A stretch of DNA of 64,000 bases from Eubacteriales bacterium. Lineage in GTDB: Bacteria; Bacillota; Clostridia; Oscillospirales; CAG-272. The notes beneath the pieces are model-generated. The model saw only the letters and a program-made list of their open reading frames with translations. It searched no databases and was not told the DNA's origin. A program made the translations under genes and the position numbers. Positions 696 to 60,407 of the stretch are shown one piece after another (positions within the stretch are counted from its first letter, which is position 1; each line of letters starts with the position of its first letter). The stretch covers positions 7,458 to 71,457 of the forward strand of contig JAZUBZ010000034.1 of NCBI GenBank assembly GCA_045638805.1, read 5' to 3'.

Positions 696-1469
696 GTGAA
701 GGCTAATTATCACACTCACTCGAAATACTGCGGTCACGCTTCAGGTGAAGCGGAGGAATACGTTCTTCGCGCAATTGAACGCGGACTTGACACCATTGGA
801 TTTGCATGCCACGTGCCGTATTCTTTTAATAACGGATACGTATCGGGCTTCAGAATACAGCCTGAGGATCACGAAAAATATATAAATGACGTGCTTGCTT
901 GCCGTGAAAAGTACGGTGACAGAATAAAAATTTTTCTCGGATATGAGGCTGAGTATTATCCCCGTCATTTCGATGATATGCTTGAAAACATAAGAAAATA
1001 TCCCGTGGATTATATCATACTCGGTCAGCATGAAAGTGATAACGAGTATGACGGTGTTTCAAACCACACTCCAGCGGTAAGCATCGAAAGAGTGAAAAAA
1101 TATGCAGATACCCTTATCCGCGCTATGGAAACGGGACTTTTCACATACGTTGCCCACCCGGATCTTCTTTCATACGAAGGGGATGAGGAAGAATATCTTT
1201 CCGAAATGAAGAGAGTTATCGAAAAAGCAATAGAAACGGACACGCCCCTCGAACTTAATCTTCTTGGACTTTGTGACGGCAGACCCTATCCAAAAAACTG
1301 CTTTTTCGATCTGGTAGGAAAGATGGGATGCCCCGTTATCGTCGGTTGTGATGCTCACTCCCCCGATAAGGTGGCTAATCAAAACGATCTGGAAATGGCA
1401 GAACGGTTCATAAAACGCCACGGGCTTTGCGTGAGAGAATATGCGTCTCTCAGAAAGGTACAGTTGTAA
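696..1469 (+). CDS. PHP-domain phosphatase, HisJ (histidinol-phosphatase) family, paralog 1
   Basis: GTG start 8 nt after the AGGAGG RBS. N-terminal NYHTHSKYCGH metal-binding motif, internal AHPD and C-terminal GCDAHSP motifs typical of PHP/HisJ enzymes. Confidence 0.8.
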   Translation: MKANYHTHSKYCGHASGEAEEYVLRAIERGLDTIGFACHVPYSFNNGYVSGFRIQPEDHEKYINDVLACREKYGDRIKIFLGYEAEYYPRHFDDMLENIRKYPVDYIILGQHESDNEYDGVSNHTPAVSIERVKKYADTLIRAMETGLFTYVAHPDLLSYEGDEEEYLSEMKRVIEKAIETDTPLELNLLGLCDGRPYPKNCFFDLVGKMGCPVIVGCDAHSPDKVANQNDLEMAERFIKRHGLCVREYASLRKVQL

Positions 1470-1470
1470 T

Positions 1471-2253
1471 ATGAATAAATTCAGAAAAAATTATCACACC
1501 CACACGGCTCTTTGTAATCACGCAAGCGGAACTATAAGAGATTATGTGGAAGCGGCACTTGAAAGAGGATTTGAAACGATAGGCTTTTCATGCCACGCTC
1601 CCTATCCCTTTGAATTGAAAAATTACAGTTCATGGTACAGAATGACTCCCGCTCAGCACGACGTATACGCTGCAGAGATCCTCGCTCTTAAGGAAGAATA
1701 CAAGGATAAGATAGAGGTCCTTCTCGGATACGAGGTGGAGTATTACCCCGCGCTGTGGAACGAGCTTTTAGCTGAATTGAGGCGTTACCCCTGCGACTAC
1801 ATAATTCAGGGTCAGCATTTTTACAACAACGAGTACGACGGTAATTACGCAGGCGACTGTGTTGACGACGTACGCAGTGTGAAGGGATACGCCCGTATCC
1901 TTTGCGAAGGTATGAAAACGGGACTTTATACATACGTAGCCCACCCTGATCTTAACAACTATGGAGGGGATATCGACGAATACTGTGATGCTATGAAGAG
2001 CGTATGTGAAGTGTCTCTTGAGACAGACACACCTCTTGAGATAAATCTTCTCGGAATCAGAGGCAGACGCCCCTACCCTAAGGACGAGTTTTGGAAGATG
2101 GTGGGTCGCTACGGCTGTAAGGTAGTATTCGGAAGTGATGCTCACTCTCCCGCAGAGCTTCTATGCACGGAGGATTTCGACCGTGCCATGGAAATGGTAT
2201 CAAAATACGGTCTTAATTATATTGAGGAAGTACCTCTCAGGAGTATATTCTGA
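1471..2253 (+). CDS. PHP-domain phosphatase, HisJ family, paralog 2
   Basis: The ATG at 1471 (MNKFRKNYHTHTALCNH) lies 1 nt after the paralog 1 stop. Same HTH..C.H, AHPD and GSDAHSP motifs. The upstream Met of the listed ORF (1441) overlaps the previous gene and is less likely. Confidence 0.8.
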   Translation: MNKFRKNYHTHTALCNHASGTIRDYVEAALERGFETIGFSCHAPYPFELKNYSSWYRMTPAQHDVYAAEILALKEEYKDKIEVLLGYEVEYYPALWNELLAELRRYPCDYIIQGQHFYNNEYDGNYAGDCVDDVRSVKGYARILCEGMKTGLYTYVAHPDLNNYGGDIDEYCDAMKSVCEVSLETDTPLEINLLGIRGRRPYPKDEFWKMVGRYGCKVVFGSDAHSPAELLCTEDFDRAMEMVSKYGLNYIEEVPLRSIF

Positions 2254-2254
2254 T

Positions 2255-3034
2255 ATGGAAAAGCTTCTCGGACGGAATTTTCACACCCACACAAAATACT
2301 GCGGCCATGCAGAGGGTGAGGTGGAGGAATACGTAAGATGCGCTATTGAAGCGGGATTTGATACCGTCGGATTTTCCTGCCACGCGCCCTACGTTTTTAA
2401 TAACGGGTACGTGTCGGGACTGAGAATGAGCTGTGAAGATAAGAAAAAATACGTTTCTGACGTGATTTCCGCGCGAGAAAAGTTCGCGGGGCAGATAGAC
2501 GTAAAACTAGGCTACGAATGCGAGTATTATCCCGCGCATTTCAGCGATACGCTGAAATTTCTGACAGCCACGCCCTGCGATTATCTTATCCTCGGTCAGC
2601 ATTTTTACGGTAACGAATACGATGACGACCATATCGCGGCGGAGGAGGGACCTATACACCTTGCCGACTACGTTAAACAGACTTCGGAAGCAATGCGCAC
2701 GGGACTTTTTACATATTTTGCACATCCCGATACCAACGAGTTTTTAGGCTCAGATGAAGAGTACCTTGAAGCAATGAGAGGTATATGTGAAGCTTCCCTT
2801 GAAACGGACACACCCCTTGAAATTAATCTTCTGGGGCTGAGACAGGGAAGACGTTATCCAAAGGAGCATTTTTGGCGTCTTGTGGGTGAGGTAGGCTGTA
2901 AGGTTGTGGTGGGATGTGACGCACACTCTCCCCGTGATCTTCTCTACGGTGATGATTTCAAACGTGCCATGGAGATGGTTGAAAAGTATGGGTTAAACTA
3001 TACCGATGACATAAAGCTAAAAAAATTAAAGTAA
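2255..3034 (+). CDS. PHP-domain phosphatase, HisJ family, paralog 3
   Basis: The ATG at 2255 (MEKLLGRNFHTHTKYCGH) lies 1 nt after the paralog 2 stop. Same motif set (AHPD, GCDAHSP). The listed ORF start at 2135 overlaps paralog 2. Confidence 0.8.
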   Translation: MEKLLGRNFHTHTKYCGHAEGEVEEYVRCAIEAGFDTVGFSCHAPYVFNNGYVSGLRMSCEDKKKYVSDVISAREKFAGQIDVKLGYECEYYPAHFSDTLKFLTATPCDYLILGQHFYGNEYDDDHIAAEEGPIHLADYVKQTSEAMRTGLFTYFAHPDTNEFLGSDEEYLEAMRGICEASLETDTPLEINLLGLRQGRRYPKEHFWRLVGEVGCKVVVGCDAHSPRDLLYGDDFKRAMEMVEKYGLNYTDDIKLKKLK

Positions 3035-3044
3035 GGAAAAAGAC

Positions 3045-4340
3045 ATGAACATTTCAAAGAAAATAAGAGAGATCGCGGCAAGAGCTGAAGCAGAGCTTGC
3101 GCCCATATTCGCTGATATAGACAGTATTGCACTTGACAACACGGAGCACGTGCTGAACGTTTTCCGTGAAAACAGAGTATCCGAGGCGTATTTTGCACCC
3201 AGCACCGGCTACGGCTACGGTGACGTAGGACGCGATGCCATCGACCGCATCTGCGCTCAGGTGTTCAGAGCGGAATCAGGTTTTATGAGACACGATTTCG
3301 TGTCCGGTACACACGCGCTTACCGTGGGACTTTTCGCGCTTCTCCGTCCGGGAGACACTATGCTTTCCGCAACGGGTCTTCCTTACGACACCATGCTTGA
3401 GGTGGTTGGCATCGACGAGAAGGGTGAGAAAAAGTGCGACGGCACAGGCTCTCTTGCGGATTTCGGAGTAAATTACCGTCACGTAGAAATGACTGCGACG
3501 GGAGTGGACATTCCCGCTCTCGTGAGTGAAGTTAAAAACGATCTCAAAATAAAGATCGTTTATATCCAGCGTTCAAAGGGATATCTTTGCCGTCCCACAC
3601 TTACAACCGCACAGATCCGAGAAGTGGCAGAGGCTGTCAAGGCAGCATCTGCAGAGGCTGGACGCGAGGCTCCCTTCGTTGTAGTAGACAACTGCTACGG
3701 TGAGTTCACCGAGCTGTATGAGCCTTGCTACACGGGTGACGGAAAGGCGGGTGCCGATATGATAATCGGTTCTCTTATTAAGAATCCCGGCGGTGGTATG
3801 GCAGACTGCGGCGGATATATCGCGGGAAGCGAGCGTGCAGTTGAGCTTGCGGGATACCGTCTCTGCTGTCCCGGAGTGGGTCTTGAGGCAGGCGCGTCCC
3901 TCGGACAGAACAGAAATATCCTTCGCGGACTTTTCCTCGCCCCCCACGTTGTGGCTCAGGCAATGAAAACGTCCCACCTTGCGGCGTATATTTTTGACGA
4001 CCTTGGTTACAAGGTAAGCCCCGGCCCCTTCGAGAGAAGAAGCGATATCATCCAGACCATTGAATGTGCTACGGGCGAGGGTCTTATAAACTTCTGCCGC
4101 GGTATTCAGTCGGCGTCCCCCGTTGACGCACACGTAACACCCATGCCCTGGGCGATGCCCGGCTATGCGGACGAGGTCATCATGGCTGCGGGAGCATTTG
4201 TCGGCGGCTCATCTATCGAGCTGTCCGCAGACGGACCTATGAGAGAGCCTTTTACTGCATTCCTTCAGGGTGGTATGACATACGAAGCAGGTAAGCTTGG
4301 CGTAATGTGCGCGGCAAGCGAGCTTATAGCTGAAAACTAA
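3045..4340 (+). CDS. YnbB-like / aluminium-resistance family protein (Cys/Met-metabolism PLP enzyme-like, Met_gamma_lyase family)
   Basis: 431 aa. The N-terminal pattern ...NVFRENRVSEAYFAPSTGYGYGDVGRD... and overall length match the YnbB family as I remember it. The start is 10 nt after the PHP paralog 3 stop. Confidence 0.7.
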   Translation: MNISKKIREIAARAEAELAPIFADIDSIALDNTEHVLNVFRENRVSEAYFAPSTGYGYGDVGRDAIDRICAQVFRAESGFMRHDFVSGTHALTVGLFALLRPGDTMLSATGLPYDTMLEVVGIDEKGEKKCDGTGSLADFGVNYRHVEMTATGVDIPALVSEVKNDLKIKIVYIQRSKGYLCRPTLTTAQIREVAEAVKAASAEAGREAPFVVVDNCYGEFTELYEPCYTGDGKAGADMIIGSLIKNPGGGMADCGGYIAGSERAVELAGYRLCCPGVGLEAGASLGQNRNILRGLFLAPHVVAQAMKTSHLAAYIFDDLGYKVSPGPFERRSDIIQTIECATGEGLINFCRGIQSASPVDAHVTPMPWAMPGYADEVIMAAGAFVGGSSIELSADGPMREPFTAFLQGGMTYEAGKLGVMCAASELIAEN

Positions 4341-15197: not shown

Positions 15198-16436
15198 CTA
15201 TAATAAATTTTCGGGTAAGCTTTCAAGAGCTGTCATAAGATCGTCTTTTGTGTTTGAGAATCTTTCACATATGACTCCGTCAAGAAGCCACGCAAGTGCT
15301 TTTCCCACCGCCTGTCCCTTAACGCCCGTTTTTTTCATAACGTCTGCGCCGCCTATGGCGAGTCCGGAGACCTTCACACAAGGATCTGTAGAGGCAATTT
15401 CTTCATATGCACGTATAAATTCCGCACATTCCTCGCTGTTCCCCGTGAATACCGTACGTACTGCGGCATAGCTTCTTATATCCTCTGCAGTCAGCTTACC
15501 CATCAGATATTTAATATCTTTTTTCTCCTCGGGAAGCTTTTGACCCATAAGAGAAGCAAAAAGGGAAGCACGCTTAATGTCAGCGGCAGATGTCTTCAGC
15601 TTTTTACATACTGCGGCGGCGTGCAGGGAGGGATCTATACCTTCCGCGTCAGCGGAAAGTCTGCAGATATACGAAAGTCTCAACACAGGATCAGATTCAA
15701 GATAGGATATAACAGCAGACGCTTTTTCAATTGCTGACGGAGAGACTCCCTCAACACAAACGGAAAGTACGTCTGCATATTTGCCCATGATCTCGGAAGC
15801 ATGTCCTCCGCAGAGGAGCTTTCTGAGCTCGGTGTATATCCTCTCCTTAGAAATACCGCAGAGAAGCTCTTTCATATCATGGATAGCGTTTGCCGTTGCT
15901 TCGTCTATGGCAAACTCAAGCACAGATGCAAATCGAAGTGCACGGAGGATCCTGAGTCCGTCCTCGCTGAATCTCTCTGTCGGAGAACCTACGCAGACTA
16001 TCATTTTTCTGCTAAGGTCGTCCATGCCGCTGAAGGGGTCGCAAAGACCTAACTTTCGGCTGTACGCCATGGCGTTTACCGTAAAATCACGGCGGGACAA
16101 GTCCAGCGTCACGTCATCGGTGAAGCTTACGGAGGTTGGATGACGATTGTCTGCATATTCACCGTCTATTCTGTAGGTAGTCACCTCGATGCACTCGCCG
16201 CTTGACACGACGGTAAGTGTACCGTGCTTCAGCCCCGTCTCTATCACTCGGTAAGCCTTGAAGACTTCCTGCATCTCGTGAGGCTTGGCATTTGTGGTGA
16301 CGTCATAGTCGTTGGGTTCTTTTCCTCTTGCGCGGTCGCGTACGCATCCGCCTACAAGATATGCTTCATATCCCGCGCTTTCAAGCTCGTCAAGTACGGG
16401 GATTATATATTCGGGTATGTTTTTGAACATTTTCAT
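15198..16436 (-). CDS. cca: CCA tRNA nucleotidyltransferase (PolyA polymerase/CCA-adding family)
   Basis: LVGGCVRD....K..DYDVTT head-domain motif, and RDFT.NA. Both tRNA genes in the window lack an encoded CCA. Confidence 0.85.
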   Translation of the reverse strand: MKMFKNIPEYIIPVLDELESAGYEAYLVGGCVRDRARGKEPNDYDVTTNAKPHEMQEVFKAYRVIETGLKHGTLTVVSSGECIEVTTYRIDGEYADNRHPTSVSFTDDVTLDLSRRDFTVNAMAYSRKLGLCDPFSGMDDLSRKMIVCVGSPTERFSEDGLRILRALRFASVLEFAIDEATANAIHDMKELLCGISKERIYTELRKLLCGGHASEIMGKYADVLSVCVEGVSPSAIEKASAVISYLESDPVLRLSYICRLSADAEGIDPSLHAAAVCKKLKTSAADIKRASLFASLMGQKLPEEKKDIKYLMGKLTAEDIRSYAAVRTVFTGNSEECAEFIRAYEEIASTDPCVKVSGLAIGGADVMKKTGVKGQAVGKALAWLLDGVICERFSNTKDDLMTALESLPENLL

Positions 16437-22340: not shown

Positions 22341-22395
22341 ATAGCACGGTTCGAAAAAACCGTAACTGAATACCGTAAGACGGAGCAGTCACAAT

Positions 22396-22484
22396 GGAAA
22401 GGTGGCTGAGTTGGTCTAAGGCGCACGACTGGAAATCGTGTAACGGCTTATACCCGTTCGAGGGTTCGAATCCCTCCCTTTCCG
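22396..22484 (+). tRNA. tRNA-Ser (anticodon GGA), class II with long variable arm, no encoded CCA
   Basis: Acceptor GGAAAGG/CCTTTCC plus discriminator G. Anticodon arm CACGA-CTGGAAA-TCGTG. Variable arm AACGGCTTATACCCGTT. T-arm GAGGG-TTCGAAT-CCCTC. Confidence 0.9.
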
Positions 22485-22490
22485 AAAAAA

Positions 22491-22526
22491 GAAAACAGAC
22501 TCGAAAGAGTCTGTTTTCTTTTTTTT
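22491..22526 (+). terminator. Terminator after tRNA-Ser
   Basis: GAAAACAGACTC-GAAA-GAGTCTGTTTTC followed by T8. Confidence 0.85.
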
Positions 22527-22551
22527 GAAAGGATTAAACGGGATTCGAAAG
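22514..22551. repeat. Degenerate inverted copy of the tRNA-Ser 3' end (copy 1); a direct repeat of 24577-24614
   Basis: TTTTCTTTTTTTTGAAAGGATTAAACGGGATTCGAAAG. Compare the reverse complement of the tRNA 3' end plus trailer, TTTTCTTTTTTCGGAAAGGGAGGGATTCGAA. Confidence 0.8.
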
Positions 22552-22578
22552 CCGGTAGTCACATCGTGTAACGGTGAC

Positions 22579-22660
22579 CAAATGCGTGAGCATTTGCGGC
22601 GTGGATTTAGTCCGATGTTCGCACTTGCAATATCACGAGAAACTATTTACAAAAGGATGC
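22579..22660. repeat. Conserved tRNA-downstream module, copy A (hairpin + GGCGTGGATTTAGTCCGATGTTCGCACT core)
   Basis: The core 22595-22625 is identical to 49278-49308 at 30 of 31 positions. Further shared blocks are ATCACGAG and CAAAGGA. Confidence 0.8.
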
Positions 22661-22784
22661 CCATCTGTCTAAGAAATCCAGCAAAACGATACGCATCCGC
22701 ACTTGGCGGAGCCAAGTGATGGGTTCGCCGGTCCCGAACGCGCAAGCGTTCAATTCGCAGGGGCTATGAGAACGGGGTAGCGTT

Positions 22785-22816
22785 CCTTTTTCTTTTTTGG
22801 AAAGGGAGAGGGCGAG
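22785..22816. repeat. Second degenerate inverted copy of the tRNA-Ser acceptor/trailer (copy 2)
   Basis: CCTTTTTCTTTTTTGGAAAGGGAGAGGGCGAG. Its GGAAAGGGAG equals the reverse complement of the tRNA acceptor 3' strand region CTCCCTTTCC. Its flanks are shared with copy 3 at 24575-24622. Confidence 0.7.
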
Positions 22817-22852: not shown

Positions 22853-23182
22853 TTATGAAAGAGATTGGAGATATACAGATAAAAGTTGTAGAGCAGTCTC
22901 ACGGTCTTTGGGTGAGCAGTCGCTAAGACGTGCGAAAAGCTCATCCTGTATTTGTGAGAGAGTAGGATTGTCATGTGTTAAAATCTCATTTGGGGTAATG
23001 TGAAGCGCATCGCAAATACGAAGAACTGTTTCTATACGCATATTAACGCTTCCACGTTCTATATCTGCGTATGTTCGATCAGATAACCCTGCAGCTTCAG
23101 CTACTTCAGCTTGCGTAAGACCCGCGCGTTTGCGAAAAGAGAAAAGTTTATTTCCTATTGTACGAAAATCGAAAACCAACAT
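22853..23182 (-). CDS. XRE-family (Cro/CI-type HTH) transcriptional regulator
   Basis: HTH segment LTQAEVAEAAGLSDRTYADIERG. The ATG at 23182 follows GGAGGAAG. AT-rich. Confidence 0.8.
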   Translation of the reverse strand: MLVFDFRTIGNKLFSFRKRAGLTQAEVAEAAGLSDRTYADIERGSVNMRIETVLRICDALHITPNEILTHDNPTLSQIQDELFARLSDCSPKDRETALQLLSVYLQSLS

Positions 23183-23231
23183 AATTCTTCCTCCAAATAC
23201 ATTGATATAGGAATTATACTTCAAAAATCTA

Positions 23232-23260
23232 TTGACAAATAGGAACTAAGACTGTATAAT
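23232..23260 (+). promoter_or_regulatory. Promoter candidate for the lipoprotein gene, bracketed by TAGGAAnTA operator-like repeats
   Basis: TTGACA, 17-nt spacer, TATAAT. ATAGGAATTA (23207), ATAGGAACTA (23239) and the inverted ATAGTTCCT (23271). Confidence 0.55.
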
Positions 23261-23334
23261 TAAATGAAGGATAGTTCCTGATGATGGTGGTTTTACTTAT
23301 TCTAGGATATGTGATGAAAGGAGATTTAATTCAT

Positions 23335-24294
23335 ATGACACGATTACTTGCGTTTCTTTTAGCGTTGATGATGTGCCTAACGTTTACAGCGTGTAAAGAT
23401 AAAAACAAGGATGACACGGAAGAAAAGGATGATATACATATTGAGGGGGAAATGCAATTTGATAATAAAAAAGCACCAAGCGAGGCAACTATATTAAATG
23501 ATTTAGGGGAAAAATTGTTGGACAAAAATGAGTTTGTTAACCTGACAAACGTGACTACTGTAAAAAGTTTAACAGATGATGGTTATTTTAGTGTTACTTT
23601 AGAGGTACAAGCGGCAAGTGATTACACTGATTGGGTGTATGAAGTTGAGTTAGAATATACTAAGTATGACCAAGGATGGATGTTGGATAATGCATCTTGG
23701 CTATCCGAGGAGTATACCATTGCCAGAGTACCGACTTTAGAAGTTATTACTGAACTGGCTAATAATGTGGATAAGAGTGAAGTAAACTTTGGCTCAATGT
23801 TACCGGTAAGTAATGCAACTATAGATACGGACGATACACTTGAAACCGGGATCTTGTGGTTTACTTGGTCGTTTGAAGAGGAATACCCGCACGTATACCA
23901 AACTACAGTTTGTACAACGAAATGGTCGTATGATGTACTATCGGATGAATGGAAGTGTATTCCTTATGATGAGTCGTCAGGTGAGGCTAAACTTATATAT
24001 AATGTGACTCCCAAAGATGTTGATTTTTCCGGCGAATGGACCGGAAGTGGTTTTGTTTCTACGATTATAATTGAAGATTTTTCTTGGGACGGCTTTACTG
24101 TTACTGTTGACGGAGAATCAAGTTATTATCGGTCCATATATGGTCATCCCAAAACTAGTGAAAAATCCTTTGGGTGGTTCAGTGACGGTAGTAACTATAT
24201 ACATATAAGTTCAGGTCCTAGAGGTAGTAGTATACAACTTCTCTCGATTGGGCAAAGATCAACAACTCAAATTTTCTATGGCTCCCTCGATTAA
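23335..24294 (+). CDS. Hypothetical lipoprotein
   Basis: MTRLLAFLLALMMCLTFTACKDKNK (lipobox LTFTAC), RBS AAAGGAG, AT-rich. No family recognised. Confidence 0.65.
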   Translation: MTRLLAFLLALMMCLTFTACKDKNKDDTEEKDDIHIEGEMQFDNKKAPSEATILNDLGEKLLDKNEFVNLTNVTTVKSLTDDGYFSVTLEVQAASDYTDWVYEVELEYTKYDQGWMLDNASWLSEEYTIARVPTLEVITELANNVDKSEVNFGSMLPVSNATIDTDDTLETGILWFTWSFEEEYPHVYQTTVCTTKWSYDVLSDEWKCIPYDESSGEAKLIYNVTPKDVDFSGEWTGSGFVSTIIIEDFSWDGFTVTVDGESSYYRSIYGHPKTSEKSFGWFSDGSNYIHISSGPRGSSIQLLSIGQRSTTQIFYGSLD

Positions 24295-24576
24295 GATTTT
24301 AAATTGCACAACTTTTGTTTTAATGCTACCAAGCAAATTATAAACCAAAAGGTCACACATCATTAGGAATTAGTTGAAACATAATAAAAGGCATAAAAAG
24401 GGATTGTTTTATTTCATTAAGAAATTGTAAATGCCAAGGATAACCCTACAAAAAAGCCAAGGACATTAAAAGCATTTAAATGGTGTCTTTATGTCCTTGG
24501 CTTTTTATTGATTGTGTTATATGTTTTCATCTCAAAAATTCAATATGAGACTGCCTCATGGGCTCCCAGGCTATCC

Positions 24577-24614
24577 TTTTTCTTTTTTTGAAAGGATAAA
24601 ACGGGATTCGAAAG
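24577..24614. repeat. Copy 3 of the tRNA-Ser-derived repeat (direct repeat of 22514-22551)
   Basis: TTTTTCTTTTTTTGAAAGGATAAAACGGGATTCGAAAG. The core GAAAGGATWAAACGGGATTCGAAAG has 1 mismatch to copy 1. Confidence 0.8.
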
Positions 24615-24730
24615 GGGGCGAGCCTCTTGTTATCCGTACGGCTTTATGCTACAATAAATACGTAACTCGTTTACCGCGTCTTTACCGTAAATATGTTAAA
24701 CTAAACGTGAATTTATAACCGAGGTATAAT

Positions 24731-42383: not shown

Positions 42384-42522
42384 CTTGTGTTCCCTCGCTT
42401 TAAAAATATGGAAAAAATTTCTGCCCTCGGCGGAATCAAACCGCCACCTTTGAAACCAACGCTCTTACATTAAGCTATACGGGCATATATATACACGGCT
42501 CCTGCCGTAGTATTCGTAGTAT

Positions 42523-47167: not shown

Positions 47168-48568
47168 TTATTTATCCTGCTTGTTAGACTTAGCGCACTT
47201 AGCAACGATGAATCCAAGAGGAATAAGTGCAAGTACGTTGGGGATTACCATGATGTTGTTGAACATATCAGCAAGCTCCCAAACGAGGTCGTTCTTGAAG
47301 AGAGAACCGCCGAAGATGAAGAGGATAGCGATTACAGAGTAAACGATAGTCGCCTTCTTTCCGAAGAGGTACTCAACGTTCTGCTTACCGAAGAAGTTCC
47401 AGCTGATGATGGTTGTGAATGCGAAGAATGTAAGGCAGACAGCAATGATGATGTTACCTGCAGTCTGGTTGTCGAGAGCAGTACCGAGAGCGGTCTGCAT
47501 AAGATTGTTCTTGGTAAGCTCAGTAGCTGCAAGACCTTCAGCGGTACCGAGAGGACCACCGTTTGCGTAAAGTGTAGAGATAACAACGAGTGCGGTGATG
47601 GTGAGAACTACGAACGTGTCAATGAATACACCGATCATAGCAACAACACCCTGGTCGTGAGGCTTCTTTACTTCAGCCTGAGCGTGTGCGTGAGGTGTAG
47701 AACCCATACCTGCTTCGTTAGAGAAGAGACCGCGCTTTGCACCCTGGCTGATAGCAGCCTTGATAGCAGCACCCATAGTACCGCCGAGGAGAGCCTGAGG
47801 AGTGAATGCGAACTTGAAGATCATACCGAATGTTTCGGGTATAGCCTTGAAGTTGATAACGAGAACTACGATACCGACAACGAGGTAGATAACAGCCATG
47901 AGGGGAACGATCTTTTCAGCAACAGCAGCGATTCTCTTGATACCGCCGATGAAGATGAATGCGCAGATAACTGCGAGTACAGCACCGATGATCCATGTGG
48001 GGATGCCGAAAGCAGTCTCAATGGAGCTTGAGATAGAGTTGGACTGTACCATTGAGCCGATGAAGCCGAGAGCGATGGTAAGAGCGACAGCAAAGAATAC
48101 AGCGAGGAACTTACCGAAGAAGCCCTTGTATGCCTTCTTGATGTAGTAAACGGGACCACCGAGTACTTCGCCGTTTTCCTTAACGACACGTGTTTCCTGA
48201 GCGAGAGTAGCCTCGGCGTAGATGGTAGCCATACCGAAGAATGCGATGACCCACATCCAGAAGATAGCACCGGGACCACCAACGAGGATAGCGCCGCAGG
48301 CACCTACGATGTTACCTGTACCTACCTGAGCGGCAATAGCGGTAGCAAGCGCCTGGAAGGAGGAAAGACCGCCCTTGCTATTACCCTTCTTGAAGATACC
48401 GCCGAAGACCTTTTTGAAACCTTCGCCGAAGCATCTGATCTGAACGAATTTGGTTCTGAATGAGAAGTAGAGACCTGCGCCTACGAGAAGAAAGATAAGA
48501 ATGTAGTCAGACATGTAGGCATTGATTGTCTGAACGATGGGAAGCAGAAAAGCTTCGATTTTTTCCAT
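47168..48568 (-). CDS. Alanine/glycine:cation symporter (AGCS family)
   Basis: Polytopic membrane protein with ...FRTKFVQIR...GGLSSFQALATAIAAQVGTGNI.G... and ...SNEAGMGS.P.AHA... motifs. The ATG at 48568 follows CAGGAGG. Confidence 0.85.
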   Translation of the reverse strand: MEKIEAFLLPIVQTINAYMSDYILIFLLVGAGLYFSFRTKFVQIRCFGEGFKKVFGGIFKKGNSKGGLSSFQALATAIAAQVGTGNIVGACGAILVGGPGAIFWMWVIAFFGMATIYAEATLAQETRVVKENGEVLGGPVYYIKKAYKGFFGKFLAVFFAVALTIALGFIGSMVQSNSISSSIETAFGIPTWIIGAVLAVICAFIFIGGIKRIAAVAEKIVPLMAVIYLVVGIVVLVINFKAIPETFGMIFKFAFTPQALLGGTMGAAIKAAISQGAKRGLFSNEAGMGSTPHAHAQAEVKKPHDQGVVAMIGVFIDTFVVLTITALVVISTLYANGGPLGTAEGLAATELTKNNLMQTALGTALDNQTAGNIIIAVCLTFFAFTTIISWNFFGKQNVEYLFGKKATIVYSVIAILFIFGGSLFKNDLVWELADMFNNIMVIPNVLALIPLGFIVAKCAKSNKQDK

Positions 48569-48599
48569 GACTAAAAGTCCTCCTGAAATAAAGTAAATG

Positions 48600-48850
48600 A
48601 AAAAAGACTCCGCGTACACGCCGAGCCTCAGAAAAAGACACCGAAAACTTGCCACAGAGCCACGGCTCCGCATTCGGTTGCACTTTGTCCTTTTGCCTGA
48701 GAGATTAGCGGTATTCGCTTTGCACCTTCGGCACTCAATTTAATGAGCTTCTCCAAAGTTCTATCGGCTTACAGTCCCGTCCCGTAGGGACACCTGAGAG
48801 CGTTACTCCTTCGGTTGCCGTGTCGGCATTTCCTGCAAGCGTCATATAGA
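48600..48850 (-). promoter_or_regulatory. Tandem glycine riboswitch leader of the AGCS symporter gene
   Basis: The minus strand shows two aptamers. Aptamer 1: ...CAGGAAATGCC...CCGAAGGAGTAA...CTCAGG...GGGAC. Aptamer 2: GGAGAAGC...GCCGAAGGTGCAA...CTCTCAGGCAAAAGGAC. A hairpin plus T-run lies before the RBS. Confidence 0.8.
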
Positions 48851-49077: not shown

Positions 49078-49106
49078 TTGACATCTGTGGTTGTTTTTGA
49101 TATAAT
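49078..49106 (+). promoter_or_regulatory. Promoter candidate for tRNA-Pro
   Basis: TTGACA, 17-nt spacer, TATAAT, 17 nt upstream of the tRNA 5' end. Confidence 0.65.
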
Positions 49107-49123
49107 ACTACTGTTATGTATTT

Positions 49124-49197
49124 CGGGGTGTGGCTCAGTTTGGTAGAGCGCGACGTTCGGGACGTCGAAGCCGCTGGTTCGAATCCAGTCACTCCGA
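49124..49197 (+). tRNA. tRNA-Pro (anticodon CGG), no encoded CCA
   Basis: Acceptor CGGGGTG/CACTCCG plus discriminator A. D-arm GCTC-AGTTTGGTA-GAGC. Anticodon arm CGACG-TTCGGGA-CGTCG. T-arm GCTGG-TTCGAAT-CCAGT. Confidence 0.9.
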
Positions 49198-49250
49198 AAA
49201 AGAAAAAGCAGGGATTGCCCTGCTTTTTCTTTTTCGGAGTGACTGGATTC
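49181..49250. repeat. Perfect 33-bp inverted repeat (4-nt loop) whose left arm is the tRNA-Pro 3' end plus trailer; the inner part acts as terminator
   Basis: 49181-49213 GAATCCAGTCACTCCGAAAAAGAAAAAGCAGGG, loop ATTG, 49218-49250 CCCTGCTTTTTCTTTTTCGGAGTGACTGGATTC. I checked the pairing base by base. Confidence 0.95.
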
Positions 49251-49257
49251 AGAAAGA

Positions 49258-49350
49258 GCACATTCGCTTACGCGAAGTGCGGCGTGGATCTAGTCCGATG
49301 TTCGCACTAGTTACATCACGAGCGGGTTACCCAAAGGACGCAGACGCGTC
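49258..49350. repeat. Conserved tRNA-downstream module, copy B, ending in a plus-strand hairpin + T-run
   Basis: Hairpin GCACATTCGC-TTAC-GCGAAGTGC, then the core GGCGTGGATCTAGTCCGATGTTCGCACT, then ATCACGAG, then AGGACGC-AGA-GCGTCCT followed by TTTATTTTC. Confidence 0.8.
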
Positions 49351-49353
49351 CTT

Positions 49354-50766
49354 TTATTTTCTCTTAAACAATTTTACGAATAAGTTTTTTATGCCGGGTA
49401 ATTTATGATATATGTTCAGATCAGCTATCAATTCATCACAATTCTGATATCTGTCGTTGGGGTGACGCTCAATGCATTTGGAAATTATGTATTCAAGTCC
49501 GCGGGGGAGCGCGGGATCCGTTTTACGGACAGGTAATAATTCGTATGGAGGTTGCGTAGGATCAATCCCTGTTACAAGGTAGTGCATTGTAATTCCAAGG
49601 GAATATATATCTGTTCTTGCATCGATCGGGCAGAATTGAGAAAAACATTCCGGTGCGGCATAAGATAAGGTACCTAATATTGTCGATTTTCCGGCATTGA
49701 TCCTGTCACAAGTATCAACTCTGTGAAAATCAACAACTTTAAGGCTGCCGTCTGTTGTAAGAATGATGTTTGCAGGCTCTATATTACGGCAAACGTGAGG
49801 AGGTGTCTTTTTATGAAAATGATTCAGAAGGCTGCAAAGATCTTTAGCCCACCTAACGACTGTGTCAGCGGACTGAGCTCCGTTACTTCTCAGCAGACTT
49901 GCCAGGCTTGTACCTTCAATACGTTCATTTACGATAAAAATATATTCATTATCCTCGATAATATCAAAACATTCCGGAATTAAGGGATGCTTGTTTTTTA
50001 TTATCCAATACGTCTCGTTTAAATATAATTCACGCATGGTGGGTGCATAATAACGGTTTGTTTTATCCCATACTTTCATTGATAGTTTCTTTGACGTACT
50101 GTTGTCCTGTACAATAAACATCGAAGAGATTCCGTTGTTACATACAAATTCAGTGACCGAATATCTGTCGCCTATTACTTTGCCGAGAAGTTTATCCTTT
50201 ATGGTGGGAACAGTTGCGTTTTTTGATGGGATGGTCGGAGGATTCGGAAATGATTGTTTTTTTACGTCATATGTATTATACGAATGGTTCGGTTTATAGA
50301 ATATATATTTCTCAGAATTCGCAAAACAAATTTCGTCAGCGGGATTAAGCTGATATTTCTTCCCGGGTATCATTAAATTTCCATTCAAACAAGTGCCGTT
50401 CAGGGAAGTGTTGTCTCTGATAAACCAACGGCTGTTCTCATAATGGAATGAAGCATGATGTTTTGCCACCATACGGTTTGACATGAGACGGATGTCACAA
50501 GACTCATGTTTTCCTACGGTTATTATTTCTTTATCAAACTTTAATACTTCGTTAGTGCTTTCGACTGTAAGTGACAAAGAACAGGAATATAAAATAGTGG
50601 TTATTCCCGGAGGGTTCATAACGTATTCACCTATGTCGTACATATCCAACATATGATCATCCGGATCATTAATGATCTTAAATTCTTCGCCGCATATTTT
50701 ACACTTCTTTTTTATATAGCAGCAGTTGGTCTCCAATACCTCATATTCATGCTTGCACGGAGTCAT
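49354..50766 (-). CDS. Zinc-ribbon + FHA-domain + Ser/Thr-kinase-like protein with degenerate catalytic motifs (predicted pseudokinase)
   Basis: N-terminal C..........CC......C..C. FHA segment (ITVGKHESCDIRL...VAKHHA...NTSLNGTCLNG). Kinase fold with SMKV, AAPE and DIYSLG retained, but CRNIEPAN in place of HRD.KP.N, DFH in place of DFG, and no G.G..G loop. Confidence 0.75.
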   Translation of the reverse strand: MTPCKHEYEVLETNCCYIKKKCKICGEEFKIINDPDDHMLDMYDIGEYVMNPPGITTILYSCSLSLTVESTNEVLKFDKEIITVGKHESCDIRLMSNRMVAKHHASFHYENSRWFIRDNTSLNGTCLNGNLMIPGKKYQLNPADEICFANSEKYIFYKPNHSYNTYDVKKQSFPNPPTIPSKNATVPTIKDKLLGKVIGDRYSVTEFVCNNGISSMFIVQDNSTSKKLSMKVWDKTNRYYAPTMRELYLNETYWIIKNKHPLIPECFDIIEDNEYIFIVNERIEGTSLASLLRSNGAQSADTVVRWAKDLCSLLNHFHKKTPPHVCRNIEPANIILTTDGSLKVVDFHRVDTCDRINAGKSTILGTLSYAAPECFSQFCPIDARTDIYSLGITMHYLVTGIDPTQPPYELLPVRKTDPALPRGLEYIISKCIERHPNDRYQNCDELIADLNIYHKLPGIKNLFVKLFKRK

Positions 50767-51082: not shown

Positions 51083-53686
51083 TTATCTTACGAAAGCTTT
51101 GTGGAAGCGCGCGAACATGGTCGCAGTTTCGCTTCTCTGCGCCTTGTCCTGAGGTGCGAGGCTTACCGTGTCTCCATTCTGCTTACCCGTTACGATTCCG
51201 ACACCGTTTGCCCAAGCAACTGCCTCGGCAAAGCCTGCGTAGGGGCTGATCTTGCCTGCATCGGGGAATGCAGAAATGTCTGCCTCCTCTGCCATTTCAG
51301 CTTTCTTGTAGTCCTTCATATATCTGTAAAGGAATACTGCAACCTGCTCACGTGTTACGAGAGCATCGGGGGAGAATGTGGTAGCACCTGTTCCCGTTGT
51401 AACTCCGTTTTGATATGCCCAAAGCACAGCGGGGGCGTACCATTCGCTTGCGGGTACGTCTGCGAAAGGATTATTGGCTGTATCAACAGCAGGTCTTCCT
51501 TCTATATTATATAGGAGCTGAACGATCATTGCGCGGCTGGTCTGTGTGGCGGGGGCAAAAAGTGTATCTGACGTGCCGTTCATAAGTCCCGTATCATAAG
51601 CGTAACCGACGGTAGGATAGAACCAATCATTATTTGACACGTCGGTGAACGCCATCTTCTTGTTTGAGGTAACAGCGTTATATGCTGCCTTTACCTGTTC
51701 TGCGGACATTGTGCCTTGGCTAAGTGAGAACATATTGATCATTGAGCCTTTAACCAAATTATCCTCTGTCATCGAGTAACCGCCAAGCGTTATCTTTTTG
51801 TAGGAGGTGTCAATATCAGTTTTGAGTCCGCCTGAGTGACGTTCCTCTCTTGTAAGCTCACCGTTTACGTAAAGACGCGCTTTCTTGTTATCATAGGTTA
51901 AGATAACGTGGATCCATTCATTTTCTTCAATGGGGGTGTGACATACGCTGAAAACGCCCGAATTTCTGGCTAACTCTACGTATGCTGACAGTATACCGTC
52001 TTCAACTGCTAAGTTGACAAACGCGTCCTTAAGGCTGAGTATCTGCTGATAAGGCCCGGTATCGGCGAGGTTAAAGTACGCCTCAAGGGTGAATGCGTGA
52101 CGGATAGCGTCGATATCCTCAAGGTCGAAGTCATAGGAAACTACGTTCATGCCGCCAAAGGATGCGGCCATTTTACCTATAGTCTCATCTGTGACGAGCT
52201 TCGTGGGGGCAGTGATCTTACCGCTGTGTCCCTTGAAGTCAGATTGATCACCGTAGGAATAATCAACACCGTAAAGTGTCTTAAGTGAGGTGTCAATGGT
52301 ATCGTCTCGCCCAACGTTTACGGTCCCCTTTGCCTTAACGGGAGCACTCTTCTTGCCGAAAGCACCCTCAGCCGTTACGGATATCTCGTAATCAGTGTCA
52401 TATTCGAGGCCGTAGATGGTGACTGTTCTGTTAGTACCGAAGGGTATGGAAGGATCGTTATATGTGTTCATGGTGAGCGTTTCGCCGCCGTTTACGGGAG
52501 TAACATAGATATTGTAGCTTTCTACGTAGTCGTAGTTCTTGTCGCTTGCAGGTTTTGCGTTCGCAGTGAACGTAATGTCGATAGAGTCAAAGTCACCCCT
52601 GTCCTTTACTGTGACGGTCACCCCTTCGCCGTATATGGGGGCGGAACCTTTAAGACAGTATGCGTTCGGATTTGCCGCCTTGGCGGGATCGTTGAAGTAT
52701 ATGAAATCCTTCGGCTTCTGCGATGAGTCAAGGATCCAATTTTCTCCTCCGTATATAAGCTGACCTGTGGTAAGATCAACTCGGTAAAGTTCGGTGGTGC
52801 CGTCCTTTTTAACGTCAAACACGGTAATGGATGAACCGAAAAGAGTATCCTCACACTGTCTGTAGTATTTTCCGACAGTACCTGTGATCACGCTTGTAAA
52901 GCCTGCTGACTGGTCGATAACGCCGGGGTTCATAGGATCAGGGTGAGAATGTCCCGAAATGTGTACAAGCTGAGGATAATTCTTCAAAAACTCGCGGGTC
53001 TCGGGTAGGTATCTGTCGCCCTCCTGATAGTCACCGAAAAGCGTATCCTCAAATCCAATGTGGGAAACTAAGAAAATGTGTCCCTTGTAGCCCGTTGCCT
53101 CTACCTCTTTTACTGCAGACACGATATAATCGTGCTTCGGCTCAAAATCGCTTGAGCTCCCCGCGACAGCAAGGCTTACTTTGATCACAGGAACTTTACC
53201 GCCGAGCCAATATATCATCTCGGTCTCCTGACCGACCTGCTCTCTGAAGTCATTTTCGATGTTGGGGTTGTAGCACTCGTGGTTTCCAAGCATAGAAATA
53301 GTGGTTCCTACAGCGGCACCGGCGCCGGCACCCTTGCCCGTAAAGGAGTCAACCTCAACGGTGAGTTTCTCGCTGTTTTCCGCAACGATGCTCTGGTAGG
53401 CTGCAAGCTCCTCGGGTGTGCCGCCCTCCGTAAGGTCGCCTGCGGCGATAAAGGCGTCAACACCGCCGATACGTTTCATTGCCGCATAGGCATTTTTAAG
53501 CTTATCAACGGAGTCTCCGTAGCCGATGTGGATGTCGCTTCCCACGGCGAAGCGGACGACAACGTCGCTTCCCTTGGGGATCGCAGACAGCTTGTTTGCA
53601 GTCGGGATGAACGCTGCTATGGCGGGGCAGACGGTCATCGACAGTATAAGTACAAAAATTAGAATACTTGATATGATCTTTTTCAT
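51083..53686 (-). CDS. Secreted metallophosphoesterase with LamG/ConA-like domain and three C-terminal SLH repeats
   Basis: Signal peptide. GSDIHIG, AGDLTEGG, GNHE and GHSHPD phosphoesterase motifs. LamG-like segment (WIHVILTYDNKKARLYVNGE). SLH repeats (F.DV....WY...V.WA...G...G). Confidence 0.8.
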   Translation of the reverse strand: MKKIISSILIFVLILSMTVCPAIAAFIPTANKLSAIPKGSDVVVRFAVGSDIHIGYGDSVDKLKNAYAAMKRIGGVDAFIAAGDLTEGGTPEELAAYQSIVAENSEKLTVEVDSFTGKGAGAGAAVGTTISMLGNHECYNPNIENDFREQVGQETEMIYWLGGKVPVIKVSLAVAGSSSDFEPKHDYIVSAVKEVEATGYKGHIFLVSHIGFEDTLFGDYQEGDRYLPETREFLKNYPQLVHISGHSHPDPMNPGVIDQSAGFTSVITGTVGKYYRQCEDTLFGSSITVFDVKKDGTTELYRVDLTTGQLIYGGENWILDSSQKPKDFIYFNDPAKAANPNAYCLKGSAPIYGEGVTVTVKDRGDFDSIDITFTANAKPASDKNYDYVESYNIYVTPVNGGETLTMNTYNDPSIPFGTNRTVTIYGLEYDTDYEISVTAEGAFGKKSAPVKAKGTVNVGRDDTIDTSLKTLYGVDYSYGDQSDFKGHSGKITAPTKLVTDETIGKMAASFGGMNVVSYDFDLEDIDAIRHAFTLEAYFNLADTGPYQQILSLKDAFVNLAVEDGILSAYVELARNSGVFSVCHTPIEENEWIHVILTYDNKKARLYVNGELTREERHSGGLKTDIDTSYKKITLGGYSMTEDNLVKGSMINMFSLSQGTMSAEQVKAAYNAVTSNKKMAFTDVSNNDWFYPTVGYAYDTGLMNGTSDTLFAPATQTSRAMIVQLLYNIEGRPAVDTANNPFADVPASEWYAPAVLWAYQNGVTTGTGATTFSPDALVTREQVAVFLYRYMKDYKKAEMAEEADISAFPDAGKISPYAGFAEAVAWANGVGIVTGKQNGDTVSLAPQDKAQRSETATMFARFHKAFVR

Positions 53687-59765: not shown

Positions 59766-59849
59766 TTTAATCTATTCTTCCTTTCGGTGTTTTACTTTTT
59801 GGAGTATATATTTATGTCGGACTCAGTCCGATGGGGTACAAAAAATACC

Positions 59850-60160
59850 GTAGGGACGACAGCACATTCATTGCGCGAAGTGCGGCGGTCCGTTTTCACA
59901 AGGGGATCAGGTTTATGCTATATCCGAAGATGGAACCATCCCCATTCATTGTAGGGACCGACGTCCTCGGCGGTCCGTTTCGCGTGGGTTTGGTTATCCT
60001 TCATCCGAAGAAGAAACCATCTCAAACGGCGAAGTTTTCTCGGATTTCTTCGAAATCCTCACATCCTTGCCTTATCACAAAAAAGATAACGTTTCTCTGT
60101 CTCGTGCGAATACTCGCACGATGAGGGACCATTTTTTCGTAGGGGACGACGTTCCGTTTC
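59850..60160. repeat. Cluster of GTAGGG-headed hairpin (REP-like) units and short direct repeats inside the valS leader
   Basis: GTAGGGACGAC...GGCGGTCCGTTTT (59850), GTAGGGACCGACGTCCTCGGCGGTCCGTTTC (59951), GTAGGGGACGACGTTCCGTTTC (60139). ATCCGAAGATGGAACCATC and ATCCGAAGAAGAAACCATC. Hairpins GGATTTC/GAAATCC and CTCGTGCGA/TCGCACGA. Confidence 0.75.
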
Positions 60161-60171
60161 GCTCTTCACCC

Positions 60172-60400
60172 AAAATAAAAAACGCCCTGAAAACTCAGGA
60201 CGCAAACAGCGCGGTACCACCTGACTTCATACGAGTTCGTATGCAGCTTACGTGTCCGTAACGTGGACGTGCGGCGCAGACTACTGCTTTTTTCACCTGC
60301 GCGGCTCGGGAGCTACTTCGAAGACCGTTATCTGCGACGATTTCACCATCCGCCGCTCTCTTTGAGATACGTTTTCTCCTACTACTCTCCGTCAAAGCCT
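60172..60400 (-). promoter_or_regulatory. T-box riboswitch leader (valine class inferred) of valS
   Basis: Minus strand: Stem-I AGAGA/GGTGAAA elements, a candidate specifier GUA (60316-60314), the T-box core GGTGGTACCGCG (60221-60210), and the terminator CGTCCTGAG-TTTT-CAGGGCG plus T6. Confidence 0.8.
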
Positions 60401-60407
60401 TTATAGT

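Follow-up and report, generated by a model that had tools for sequence, protein, structure and literature searches.

Hairpin-bearing repeat units behind tRNA genes of uncultured gut Clostridia, a possible form of tRNA-targeting integrative DNA

The window analyzed here, a 64-kb stretch of contig JAZUBZ010000034.1 from an Eubacteriales bacterium, carried two tRNA genes, tRNA-Ser(GGA) and tRNA-Pro(CGG), and behind each of them a terminator, the tRNA gene's 3' end copied in inverse orientation (segment a'), one or two hairpins and a conserved core, together referred to as a unit. An earlier note on this stretch had described a conserved module of unknown function downstream of both tRNA genes. 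Sequence checks and a model search bore out that this module does not code for protein, is conserved and is linked to tRNA genes, and it formed only the right-hand part of the larger unit. The anatomy of the units, their link to tRNA genes, the inverted copies matched to the tRNA, direct repeats, arrays, covariation of the hairpins and the lack of a promoter or a known family were observed directly, and the units looked more like undescribed mobile or integrative DNA than like a small-RNA gene. The main features of the two loci were as follows.

22395–22485 (+), tRNA-Ser(GGA) gene without encoded CCA (ARAGORN; Rfam tRNA, 58 bits)
22465–22551 (+), long interrupted palindrome of tRNA-Ser: tRNA 3' end, A-run, terminator stem-loop, T-run, a', then AG
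22558–22578 (+), hairpin h1 of copy A, GTCAC-AT-CGT-GTA-ACG-GTGAC
22579–22596 (+), hairpin h2 of copy A, the copy-A hairpin of the earlier note, CAAATGC-GTGA-GCATTTG
22595–22639 (+), core module, copy A: junction motif GCGGCGTG, then GGATTTAGTCCGATGTTCGCAC, a variable stretch and ATCACGAG
49123–49198 (+), tRNA-Pro(CGG) gene without encoded CCA (ARAGORN; Rfam tRNA)
49181–49256 (+), palindrome of tRNA-Pro: tRNA 3' end, A-run, terminator, T-run, a' (CGGAGTGACTGGATTC), then AGAAAG
49257–49279 (+), type-2 hairpin, the copy-B hairpin of the earlier note, GCACATTCGC-TTAC-GCGAAGTGC
49278–49322 (+), core module, copy B: repeat pattern match, and a match to covariance model R1 covering the copy-B unit
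49333–49364 (+), terminator-like hairpin and T-run closing copy B

The 31-nt core TGCGGCGTGGATTTAGTCCGATGTTCGCACT at 22595–22625 recurred at 49278–49308 with one difference (T/C), as the earlier note had it, and the shared blocks ATCACGAG (22632–22639 and 49315–49322) and (C)AAAGGA were likewise found in both copies. Without gaps, the repeat reached 45 nt at 89% identity (22595–22639 and 49278–49322). A 29-nt core pattern allowing ≤3 mismatches had exactly two matches in the 64 kb, one behind each of the two tRNA genes, compared to none in 100 shuffles. With the core as query in one genome-collection scan, two loci from metagenome-assembled genomes (MAGs) were obtained, L001 from an Eubacteriales MAG and L002 from a goat-rectum Clostridia MAG, confirming that additional copies exist outside the window. 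The core was 97–100% identical across the three genomes and was the most conserved segment of the units (mean pairwise identity of 84%, versus 64–71% for the hairpins), with no covariation. Covariance model R1 was built from six type-1 units (those with h1 and h2), with copies from other genomes and leaving copy B out, and was searched with filters off. In the window, R1 units were located only behind its two tRNA genes, which upheld the expected tRNA linkage, and in L001 they were located behind two of its three tRNAs. The copy-B unit (49244–49327) scored 42 bits (E = 2.5e-12), and a shorter, core-less unit behind the tRNA-Trp of L001 was recovered at 23.5 bits (E = 5e-6).

The units, about 110–150 bp in size, shared one order: terminator hairpin and T-run; a'; hairpins h1 and h2, or a type-2 hairpin; GCGGCG(TG); then either the core with CATCACGAG or unrelated sequence. 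A further terminator stood after the core and CATCACGAG. The core was found joined to either hairpin type, and the sequences diverged directly after GCGGCG. Units occurred singly, in tandem arrays or flanking low-GC cargo. In L001, tRNA-Arg was followed by three tandem units, the middle one being a composite in which a type-2 hairpin, a long insert and part of a type-1 unit were combined. The L002 contig began inside an array. At least three near-identical 149-nt units were present on one contig of the L002 lineage, and all nine independent contigs of that lineage (L006–L014, with the flanking histidine kinase) ended inside the array, short of the presumed tRNA. The a' segments of the L002 array corresponded to two different tRNAs, so that a' goes along with the unit.

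The loci of the other genomes resembled the window in nucleotide sequence in the units only. The lineage of the window had no close relatives, the best other match of the flanking kinase being 50% identical, and the protein flanking the L001 units had no close homologues. The units were thus far sampled in a narrow group of uncultured gut and rumen Clostridia. Three patterns searched in viral contigs gave 0 matches, a scan of a metagenome collection gave three chance matches only, all within coding sequence, and no unit was found by blastn in phage and plasmid collections.

Behind each tRNA gene of the window, the hairpin of the terminator continued into a long inverted repeat that took in the tRNA 3' end, with a' being an inverted copy of the T-loop, the 3' strand of the T-stem and the 3' strand of the acceptor stem of the local tRNA. 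At tRNA-Ser, the 3' part of the gene (T-loop to discriminator) formed arm a of the palindrome, and a' read GAAAGG-ATTAAAC-GGGATTCGAA, in which the 7-nt ATTAAAC was an insert relative to the tRNA; the inverted repeats there were I1 (26 nt, 92%) and I3 (10 nt, 100%; TTCGAATCCC/GGGATTCGAA). At tRNA-Pro, the arms 49181–49213 and 49218–49250 were complementary at 33/33 bp (100%), and the inverted match scored 38, against a null maximum of 25. The single-strand fold of the palindrome had a z of -10 for tRNA-Pro and -7.4 for tRNA-Ser, and as a single strand the palindrome hairpin out-competed the tRNA fold at both genes. Shuffling tests supported the inverted copy at tRNA-Ser and tRNA-Pro of the window and at tRNA-Trp of L001 (p < 0.0005 for each), as well as at tRNA-Arg of L001 (p = 0.001); the unit-less tRNA-Gln of L001 had p = 0.49. 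Segment a' matched the adjacent tRNA wherever that tRNA is known. It was usually interrupted by a 7-nt insert of the form ATnnnAC (ATTAAAC, ATAAAAC, ATTTAAC, ATAGCAC, ATAGAAC, ATTGCAC and TCGTAC across units), which copy B did not have, and it stopped with TTCGAA, a palindromic hexamer of the T-loop, after which came AG, an end written here as TTCGAAAG. A CCA-adding enzyme (tRNA nucleotidyltransferase of the PolyA_pol family, 15198–16436, minus strand) was encoded in the window, consistent with both of its tRNA genes having no encoded CCA.

Two types of hairpin stood between a' and the core. Type 1 consisted of h1 and h2. Hairpin h1 was built of an outer stem, an AT bulge, a 3-bp inner stem and a GTA triloop, an architecture that recurred in the units of L001 and L002 with compensatory stem changes, while h2 had seven pairs, three of them changed on both sides, with 100% pairing in six units. 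Type 2 (GCACATTCG...CGAAGTGC), with a conserved internal A/G mismatch, was found in copy B, in unit 2 of the L001 array (3446–3472), in unit 3 of L002 (about 296–321) and in the valS leader of the window (59862–59885). Both hairpins of the earlier note were present (22579–22596 and 49257–49279), but the difference between them, which it took to be compensatory, was one between separate modules, both of which had their sequence conserved in other genomes; it had overlooked that the two hairpins of copy A stand in the place of a single, unrelated one in copy B. Selection on hairpin structure was nevertheless supported, not between the two hairpins of the window but by covariation of type 1 across genomes. 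In the six type-1 units, 8 of the 15 hairpin pairs were changed on both sides and 94% of cells were paired, a level of covariation reached by 0/500 shuffles, with all slid controls collapsing, for statistics that rest on 6 sequences. All pairs of h1 and h2 were Watson-Crick, with no G-T in about 83 pairs, and such stems would be more in keeping with hairpins of DNA than of RNA. Within h1 of copy A, positions 22563–22574 also had in common with tRNA-Ser (22435–22446) the 12-nt string ATCGTGTAACGG, which in the tRNA comprises the 3' strand of the anticodon stem and the start of the variable arm. In h1 of other genomes, 10 of the 12 letters of this string are conserved across the family, and h1 could thus have come from a segment of tRNA-Ser.

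Direct repeats of tRNA 3' ends flanked units in L001. The 126-nt unit of tRNA-Trp lay between exact direct repeats (18/18 nt; TCTTAGTGCCCCTGAAAC), and the array of tRNA-Arg was flanked by CCTGCGTGGCGYGAAAWAAAA (19/21), its far end being CCTGCGTGGCGTGAAAAAAC, which copied the tRNA 3' end directly (19/21). Both repeats started at the junction of T-loop and T-stem. The tRNA-Arg array ended at a different terminator, presumably the original one. In the window, copy A was enclosed on a larger scale. A 38-nt direct repeat of T-run, a' and TTCGAAAG (22514–22551 and 24577–24614, 92%) bracketed about 2 kb with copy A, a second terminator, an inverted tRNA-Ser end and two genes, and the GC content of about 23000–24600 was 32–40%, versus 45–55% outside. 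The features to the right of the copy-A core were:

22640–22798 (+), copy-A-specific non-coding stretch with several hairpins, ending in a plus-strand terminator (22770–22785 plus T-run)
22797–22816 (+), second inverted tRNA-Ser acceptor end, GGAAAGGGAGAGGGCGAG, directly behind the second terminator
22853–23224 (-), XRE-type helix-turn-helix (HTH) gene, cargo (Pfam HTH_3/HTH_31)
23281–24294 (+), open reading frame (ORF) of 337 aa, lipoprotein-like, cargo
24577–24714 (+), third copy of T-run, a' and TTCGAAAG, then a decayed unit

The copy-A-specific stretch added about 130 bases (22640–22770) with neat hairpins, e.g., CACTTGGC-GGA-GCCAAGTG and GAACGC-GCAA-GCGTTC, the latter with a GNRA-type loop; no homologue was found in copy B, L001 or L002, and no match in Rfam. 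The second inverted tRNA-Ser end was seen as a match of CTCTCCCTTTCCAA on the minus strand (22797–22810) with 2 mismatches, as also occurred in 3/100 shuffles. Searches of the cargo genes for defence or phage markers with PHROGs and PADLOC gave generic HTH matches only. The decayed unit (24603–24714) was a weak match to the model (8.3 bits, E = 0.6).

The earlier note had missed the inverted copies of the tRNA 3' ends behind both tRNAs, the 38-nt direct repeat bracketing copy A and about 2 kb, the second inverted tRNA-Ser end at 22797–22810 and the tandem arrays in other genomes. Taken together, the tRNA copy in inverse orientation, the arrays in tandem and the direct repeats at the flanks suggest integrative or mobile biology at the level of DNA. 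We put at about an even chance that the units are non-autonomous integrative or mosaic DNA targeting the 3' flanks of tRNA genes. This reading is based on the tRNA-specific location, the tRNA-matched inverted copies, the direct repeats of tRNA ends and the tandem accretion, as well as on the cargo between repeats, the modular shuffling, the Watson-Crick covarying hairpins and the absence of promoters, and it is from sequence features of this kind that we infer mobility, an enzyme and a function at the DNA rather than the RNA level. The units would be non-autonomous elements, or their still-constrained remains, put in place at tRNA 3' ends by an enzyme, either recombinase or transposase, whose gene would lie elsewhere, each element supplying a replacement terminator so that the tRNA gene would be kept intact. 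The hairpins and the palindrome of tRNA end, terminator and a' would be recognized by the enzyme as DNA structures (single-stranded hairpin or cruciform), and the conserved core may be a protein-binding or end sequence.

Several observations weigh against such an integrative origin. At ≤2 mismatches, no direct repeats of tRNA 3' ends flanked the Ser and Pro copies of the window. No integrase, transposase or reverse transcriptase was found in the about 50 ORFs of the window or in the ORFs adjoining the L001 and L002 units, and neither a full-length autonomous relative nor any match in phage or plasmid collections or viral contigs was found. Relatives of L002 (histidine kinase 65–90% identical) had neither unit nor tRNA downstream and differed in synteny, and because synteny is not conserved in the relatives there was no clean empty-site comparison. 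The function and origin of a' are explained by no established integration mechanism. Every unit was in the orientation of its tRNA with a plus-strand terminator behind it, as would be the case for an RNA gene, and the higher conservation of the core relative to the hairpins would suit a functional RNA as well. Finally, the comparison covered one window of 64 kb and three lineages sampled for units.

A structured small RNA (sRNA) would account for the last two of these features of the units. It is a possible but rather improbable explanation, in which the RNA would be made in the direction of the tRNA by read-through of the terminator or by processing from the tRNA co-transcript, and would end at its own terminator. 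The invariant core might then be a single-stranded seed or a protein-binding region, and a' might pair with the tRNA 3' end in the read-through RNA, perhaps as an RNase III site that frees the sRNA. Besides the common orientation and the plus-strand terminators, covarying stems beside an invariant unpaired core are a pattern typical of non-coding RNAs, and the putative core pairings P1 and P2 contain G-U on the plus strand only; P1 and P2 were, however, without covariation, and the stems that did covary had no G-U pairs. Transcription itself was considered from both ends. Terminator-like sites were located at 22770–22785, at 49333–49354 and behind each L001 unit, and the hairpin and T-run at the end of copy B (49333–49354) abutted the stop of a convergent FHA/Ser-Thr kinase gene (49354–50766, minus strand). 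The terminator of the ~100-nt sRNA suggested in the earlier note was present, but no promoter was seen for it: a scan for sigma-70-like promoters from the tRNA terminator to the module in the window and L001 gave none before any unit. Very strong sigma-70 promoters (11–12/12) lay upstream of tRNA-Pro, tRNA-Arg and tRNA-Trp (none was reported for tRNA-Ser), that of tRNA-Pro being a perfect TTGACA-17-TATAAT at 49078–49106. These could feed read-through, but a strong terminator separates the tRNA promoter from the unit, the inner units of the arrays stand behind several terminators, and the a:a' hairpin would wreck the tRNA fold in any read-through transcript. Nor did the units match an Rfam family: only tRNA, T-box and glycine riboswitch reached the gathering score of Rfam 15 in the window, and E-value searches on both window copies, L001 and L002 gave only generic long-hairpin noise on the units. 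An sRNA would also leave unexplained the direct repeats of tRNA 3' ends, the cargo between repeats and the modular shuffling.

Other candidates for what the units encode or contain were rejected. The earlier note had argued against a peptide, and reasonably so, as the ORFs crossing the copies begin inside the tRNA or the terminator; they have no ribosome-binding site before them, and the 149-nt period of the array is no multiple of three and breaks the frame. Neither ARAGORN nor the Rfam tRNA model called a tRNA-like or pseudo-tRNA sequence on either strand of the units. Pairing of a' with the core, hinted at by the copy-B fold and the single T/C core difference, had duplex energies that did not beat those of shuffled a' (a fraction of 0.07–1.0 of the shuffles did equally well or better). 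The promoter-like GGCTTTATGCTAYAAT, found once in the window and once in L001, was treated as a generic promoter rather than as belonging to the element; the gene that lies downstream of the tRNA-Trp unit also has an extended -10 promoter of similar kind, TGCTATAAT, in front of it. RNA repeats of type III toxin-antitoxin systems, which are tandem with about 36–45 nt and accompany a toxin gene, differ from the 149-nt period here, and the genes adjoining the units were convergent, histidine kinase or Ser/Thr kinase genes, with no toxin.

That the units are inert scars, i.e., decayed attL-side arms of ordinary prophages or islands in tRNA genes that are functionless now, with hairpins that would be former sites of an integrase or accessory protein, is an unlikely explanation. 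Direct repeats of tRNA 3' ends in L001, a low-GC cargo remnant with an XRE-type regulator beside tRNA-Ser and the lack of an integrase in the ORFs examined are as they should be for such scars, and tandem accretion of integrative elements at tRNA attachment (att) sites is well known. However, neutral remains are not expected to have compensatory stem changes, a core 97–100% identical across three genomes or a perfect 33-bp palindrome that persists. Separate decay at five different tRNAs would not yield the same piece of about 100 bp, and the near-identical 149-nt tandem copies imply recent amplification.

An improbable, more elaborate form of mobility would make the units cassettes in a site-specific system not described so far, with a folded single strand as the recombination site, analogous to integron attC or the attP(+) of CTX-phi. 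The tRNA-like arm, the terminator tip and a', with ATnnnAC as a 7-nt extrahelical bulge, would mimic a double-stranded tRNA 3' end, and a trans-acting recombinase would insert cassettes by tRNA genes, giving integron-like arrays of non-coding modules or genes. It is very unlikely that the units are a host feature, with palindrome and downstream hairpins selected as bidirectional terminators or insulators of CCA-less tRNA genes and the inverted copy born by template switching at a terminator quasi-palindrome, since, even though A-run/T-run terminators are already symmetric and would merely be extended by the palindromes, the inverted homology always ends at the palindromic TTCGAA as a plausible switch-back point and the CCA-less genes coexist with a CCA-adding enzyme (15198–16436), this leaves unexplained the h1, h2 and core modules across genomes, the arrays, the direct repeats and the cargo, and tRNA-Gln of L001 has an ordinary terminator without palindrome or unit.

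A part of the unit was also seen far from the tRNA genes, between the T-box of valS and the valS start codon:

59861–59888 (+), degenerate type-2 hairpin in a REP-like unit

The fragment of the copy-B hairpin that the earlier note had pointed out in this leader, GCACATTCATTGCGCGAAGTGCGG, was confirmed at 59862–59885. Three REP-like units (GTAGGGAC(C)GAC...GGCGGTCCGTTT) lay at 59840–60170, one with the type-2 hairpin inside its loop, in the about 430 nt between the T-box (60193–60404, minus strand) and the valS start (~59765), and CCGTAGGGACG in the same leader was also similar to h1 of the tRNA-Trp unit of L001.

Further observations were made elsewhere in the window. A tandem glycine riboswitch (48675–48845, minus strand) was located upstream of a Na+/alanine symporter gene (47168–48673, minus strand), adjoining the promoter of tRNA-Pro. 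A 63-nt tRNA-like sequence at 42422–42484 (minus strand) reached the Rfam tRNA gathering score (32.4 bits) with no call by ARAGORN, and sat between a gene for an extracytoplasmic function (ECF)-type sigma factor and a small Cys-rich ORF. At 696–3034 lay three paralogous genes in tandem, spaced by about 785 nt (repeat families D1, D3–D5 and D8), and the only one scanned (696–1469) had a PHP domain. Divergent paralogues at 51083–53686 (minus strand) and 53871–56534 (plus strand) encoded surface proteins with metallophosphatase, Laminin_G_3 and SLH domains.

tRNA genes are classic landing sites of integrative elements. If mobile, the units would be smaller than any other tRNA-targeting element known, and they could show how a recombinase recognizes the ends of tRNA genes, possibly via folded DNA, and how small cargo islands accrete beside tRNAs in little-studied gut Clostridia. 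As read-through RNAs, they would instead make up a new class of RNA linked to tRNAs. In practical terms, the arrays break short-read metagenome assemblies, as in all nine contigs of the L002 lineage.

To our knowledge, no described site has an inverted tRNA-matched copy forming a perfect palindrome of about 70 nt over the tRNA's own 3' end, and no relevant description of a tRNA-matched inverted copy was found in the literature on equivalents of these units. Parts of the unit nevertheless resemble known systems. sRNAs linked to tRNAs, such as 3' external transcribed spacer RNAs, also lie directly downstream in the same orientation and have a terminator at their end, but here a full terminator stands between tRNA and unit, there is no promoter, the stems are without G-U pairs, and repeats and arrays are found at the DNA level. 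With attC sites and attP(+) of CTX-phi, the units share an imperfect palindrome with extrahelical bases that folds into a double-stranded copy of the target, and with attC also the cassette-like arrays at one fixed site, some non-coding and one with genes, and the absence of an integrase nearby, as in attC clusters lacking integrases. They differ in that the palindrome ends read TTCGAATCC.../...GGATTCGAA, without the R''/R' boxes (RYYYAAC ... GTTRRRY) and with no GTTRRRY, no integron integrase was found in the window, no link to IntI or Xer is known, a tRNA gene would have to serve as the partner, and the inner units of arrays are without the left palindrome arm.

The likeness was greater to REP/BIME sequences (mobilized by RAYT) and IS200/IS605 miniatures (HUH Y1 transposases). 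The units, too, are short, extragenic, hairpin-based mosaics, whose stems covary while the GTA triloop and AT bulge of h1 are conserved, with a constant TTCGAA/TCGAA left flank, no terminal inverted repeats, a strict orientation and, in some copies, GTAG before h1. In contrast, they are confined to tRNA flanks rather than dispersed, h1 is unlike h2, those in L001 have target direct repeats of 18–21 nt where IS200/605 makes none, and no gene for a TnpA, RAYT or HUH Y1 transposase was found among the about 50 ORFs of the window. Further comparisons are with the integrase-less, cis-mobilizable integrative elements (CIMEs) and the stacking of elements in tandem at att sites of tRNA genes, as in the ICESt1/ICESt3 family of integrative and conjugative elements, and with tycheposon-type tRNA islands. 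Like these, the units lie at the 3' ends of tRNA genes, have direct repeats of the tRNA 3' end (L001), occur in tandem at one tRNA, have no integrase of their own and enclose low-GC cargo between repeats (tRNA-Ser), but they are only about 110–150 bp long and mostly gene-free, no cognate integrase was found, the window copies are without tRNA direct repeats, and the inverted copy of the tRNA 3' end is no described feature of att sites. Overall, although not all defining features of either family were seen, the units are nearest in kind to integrative elements that lack an integrase and lie at tRNA att sites, and to hairpin mosaics of the REP/IS200 type.

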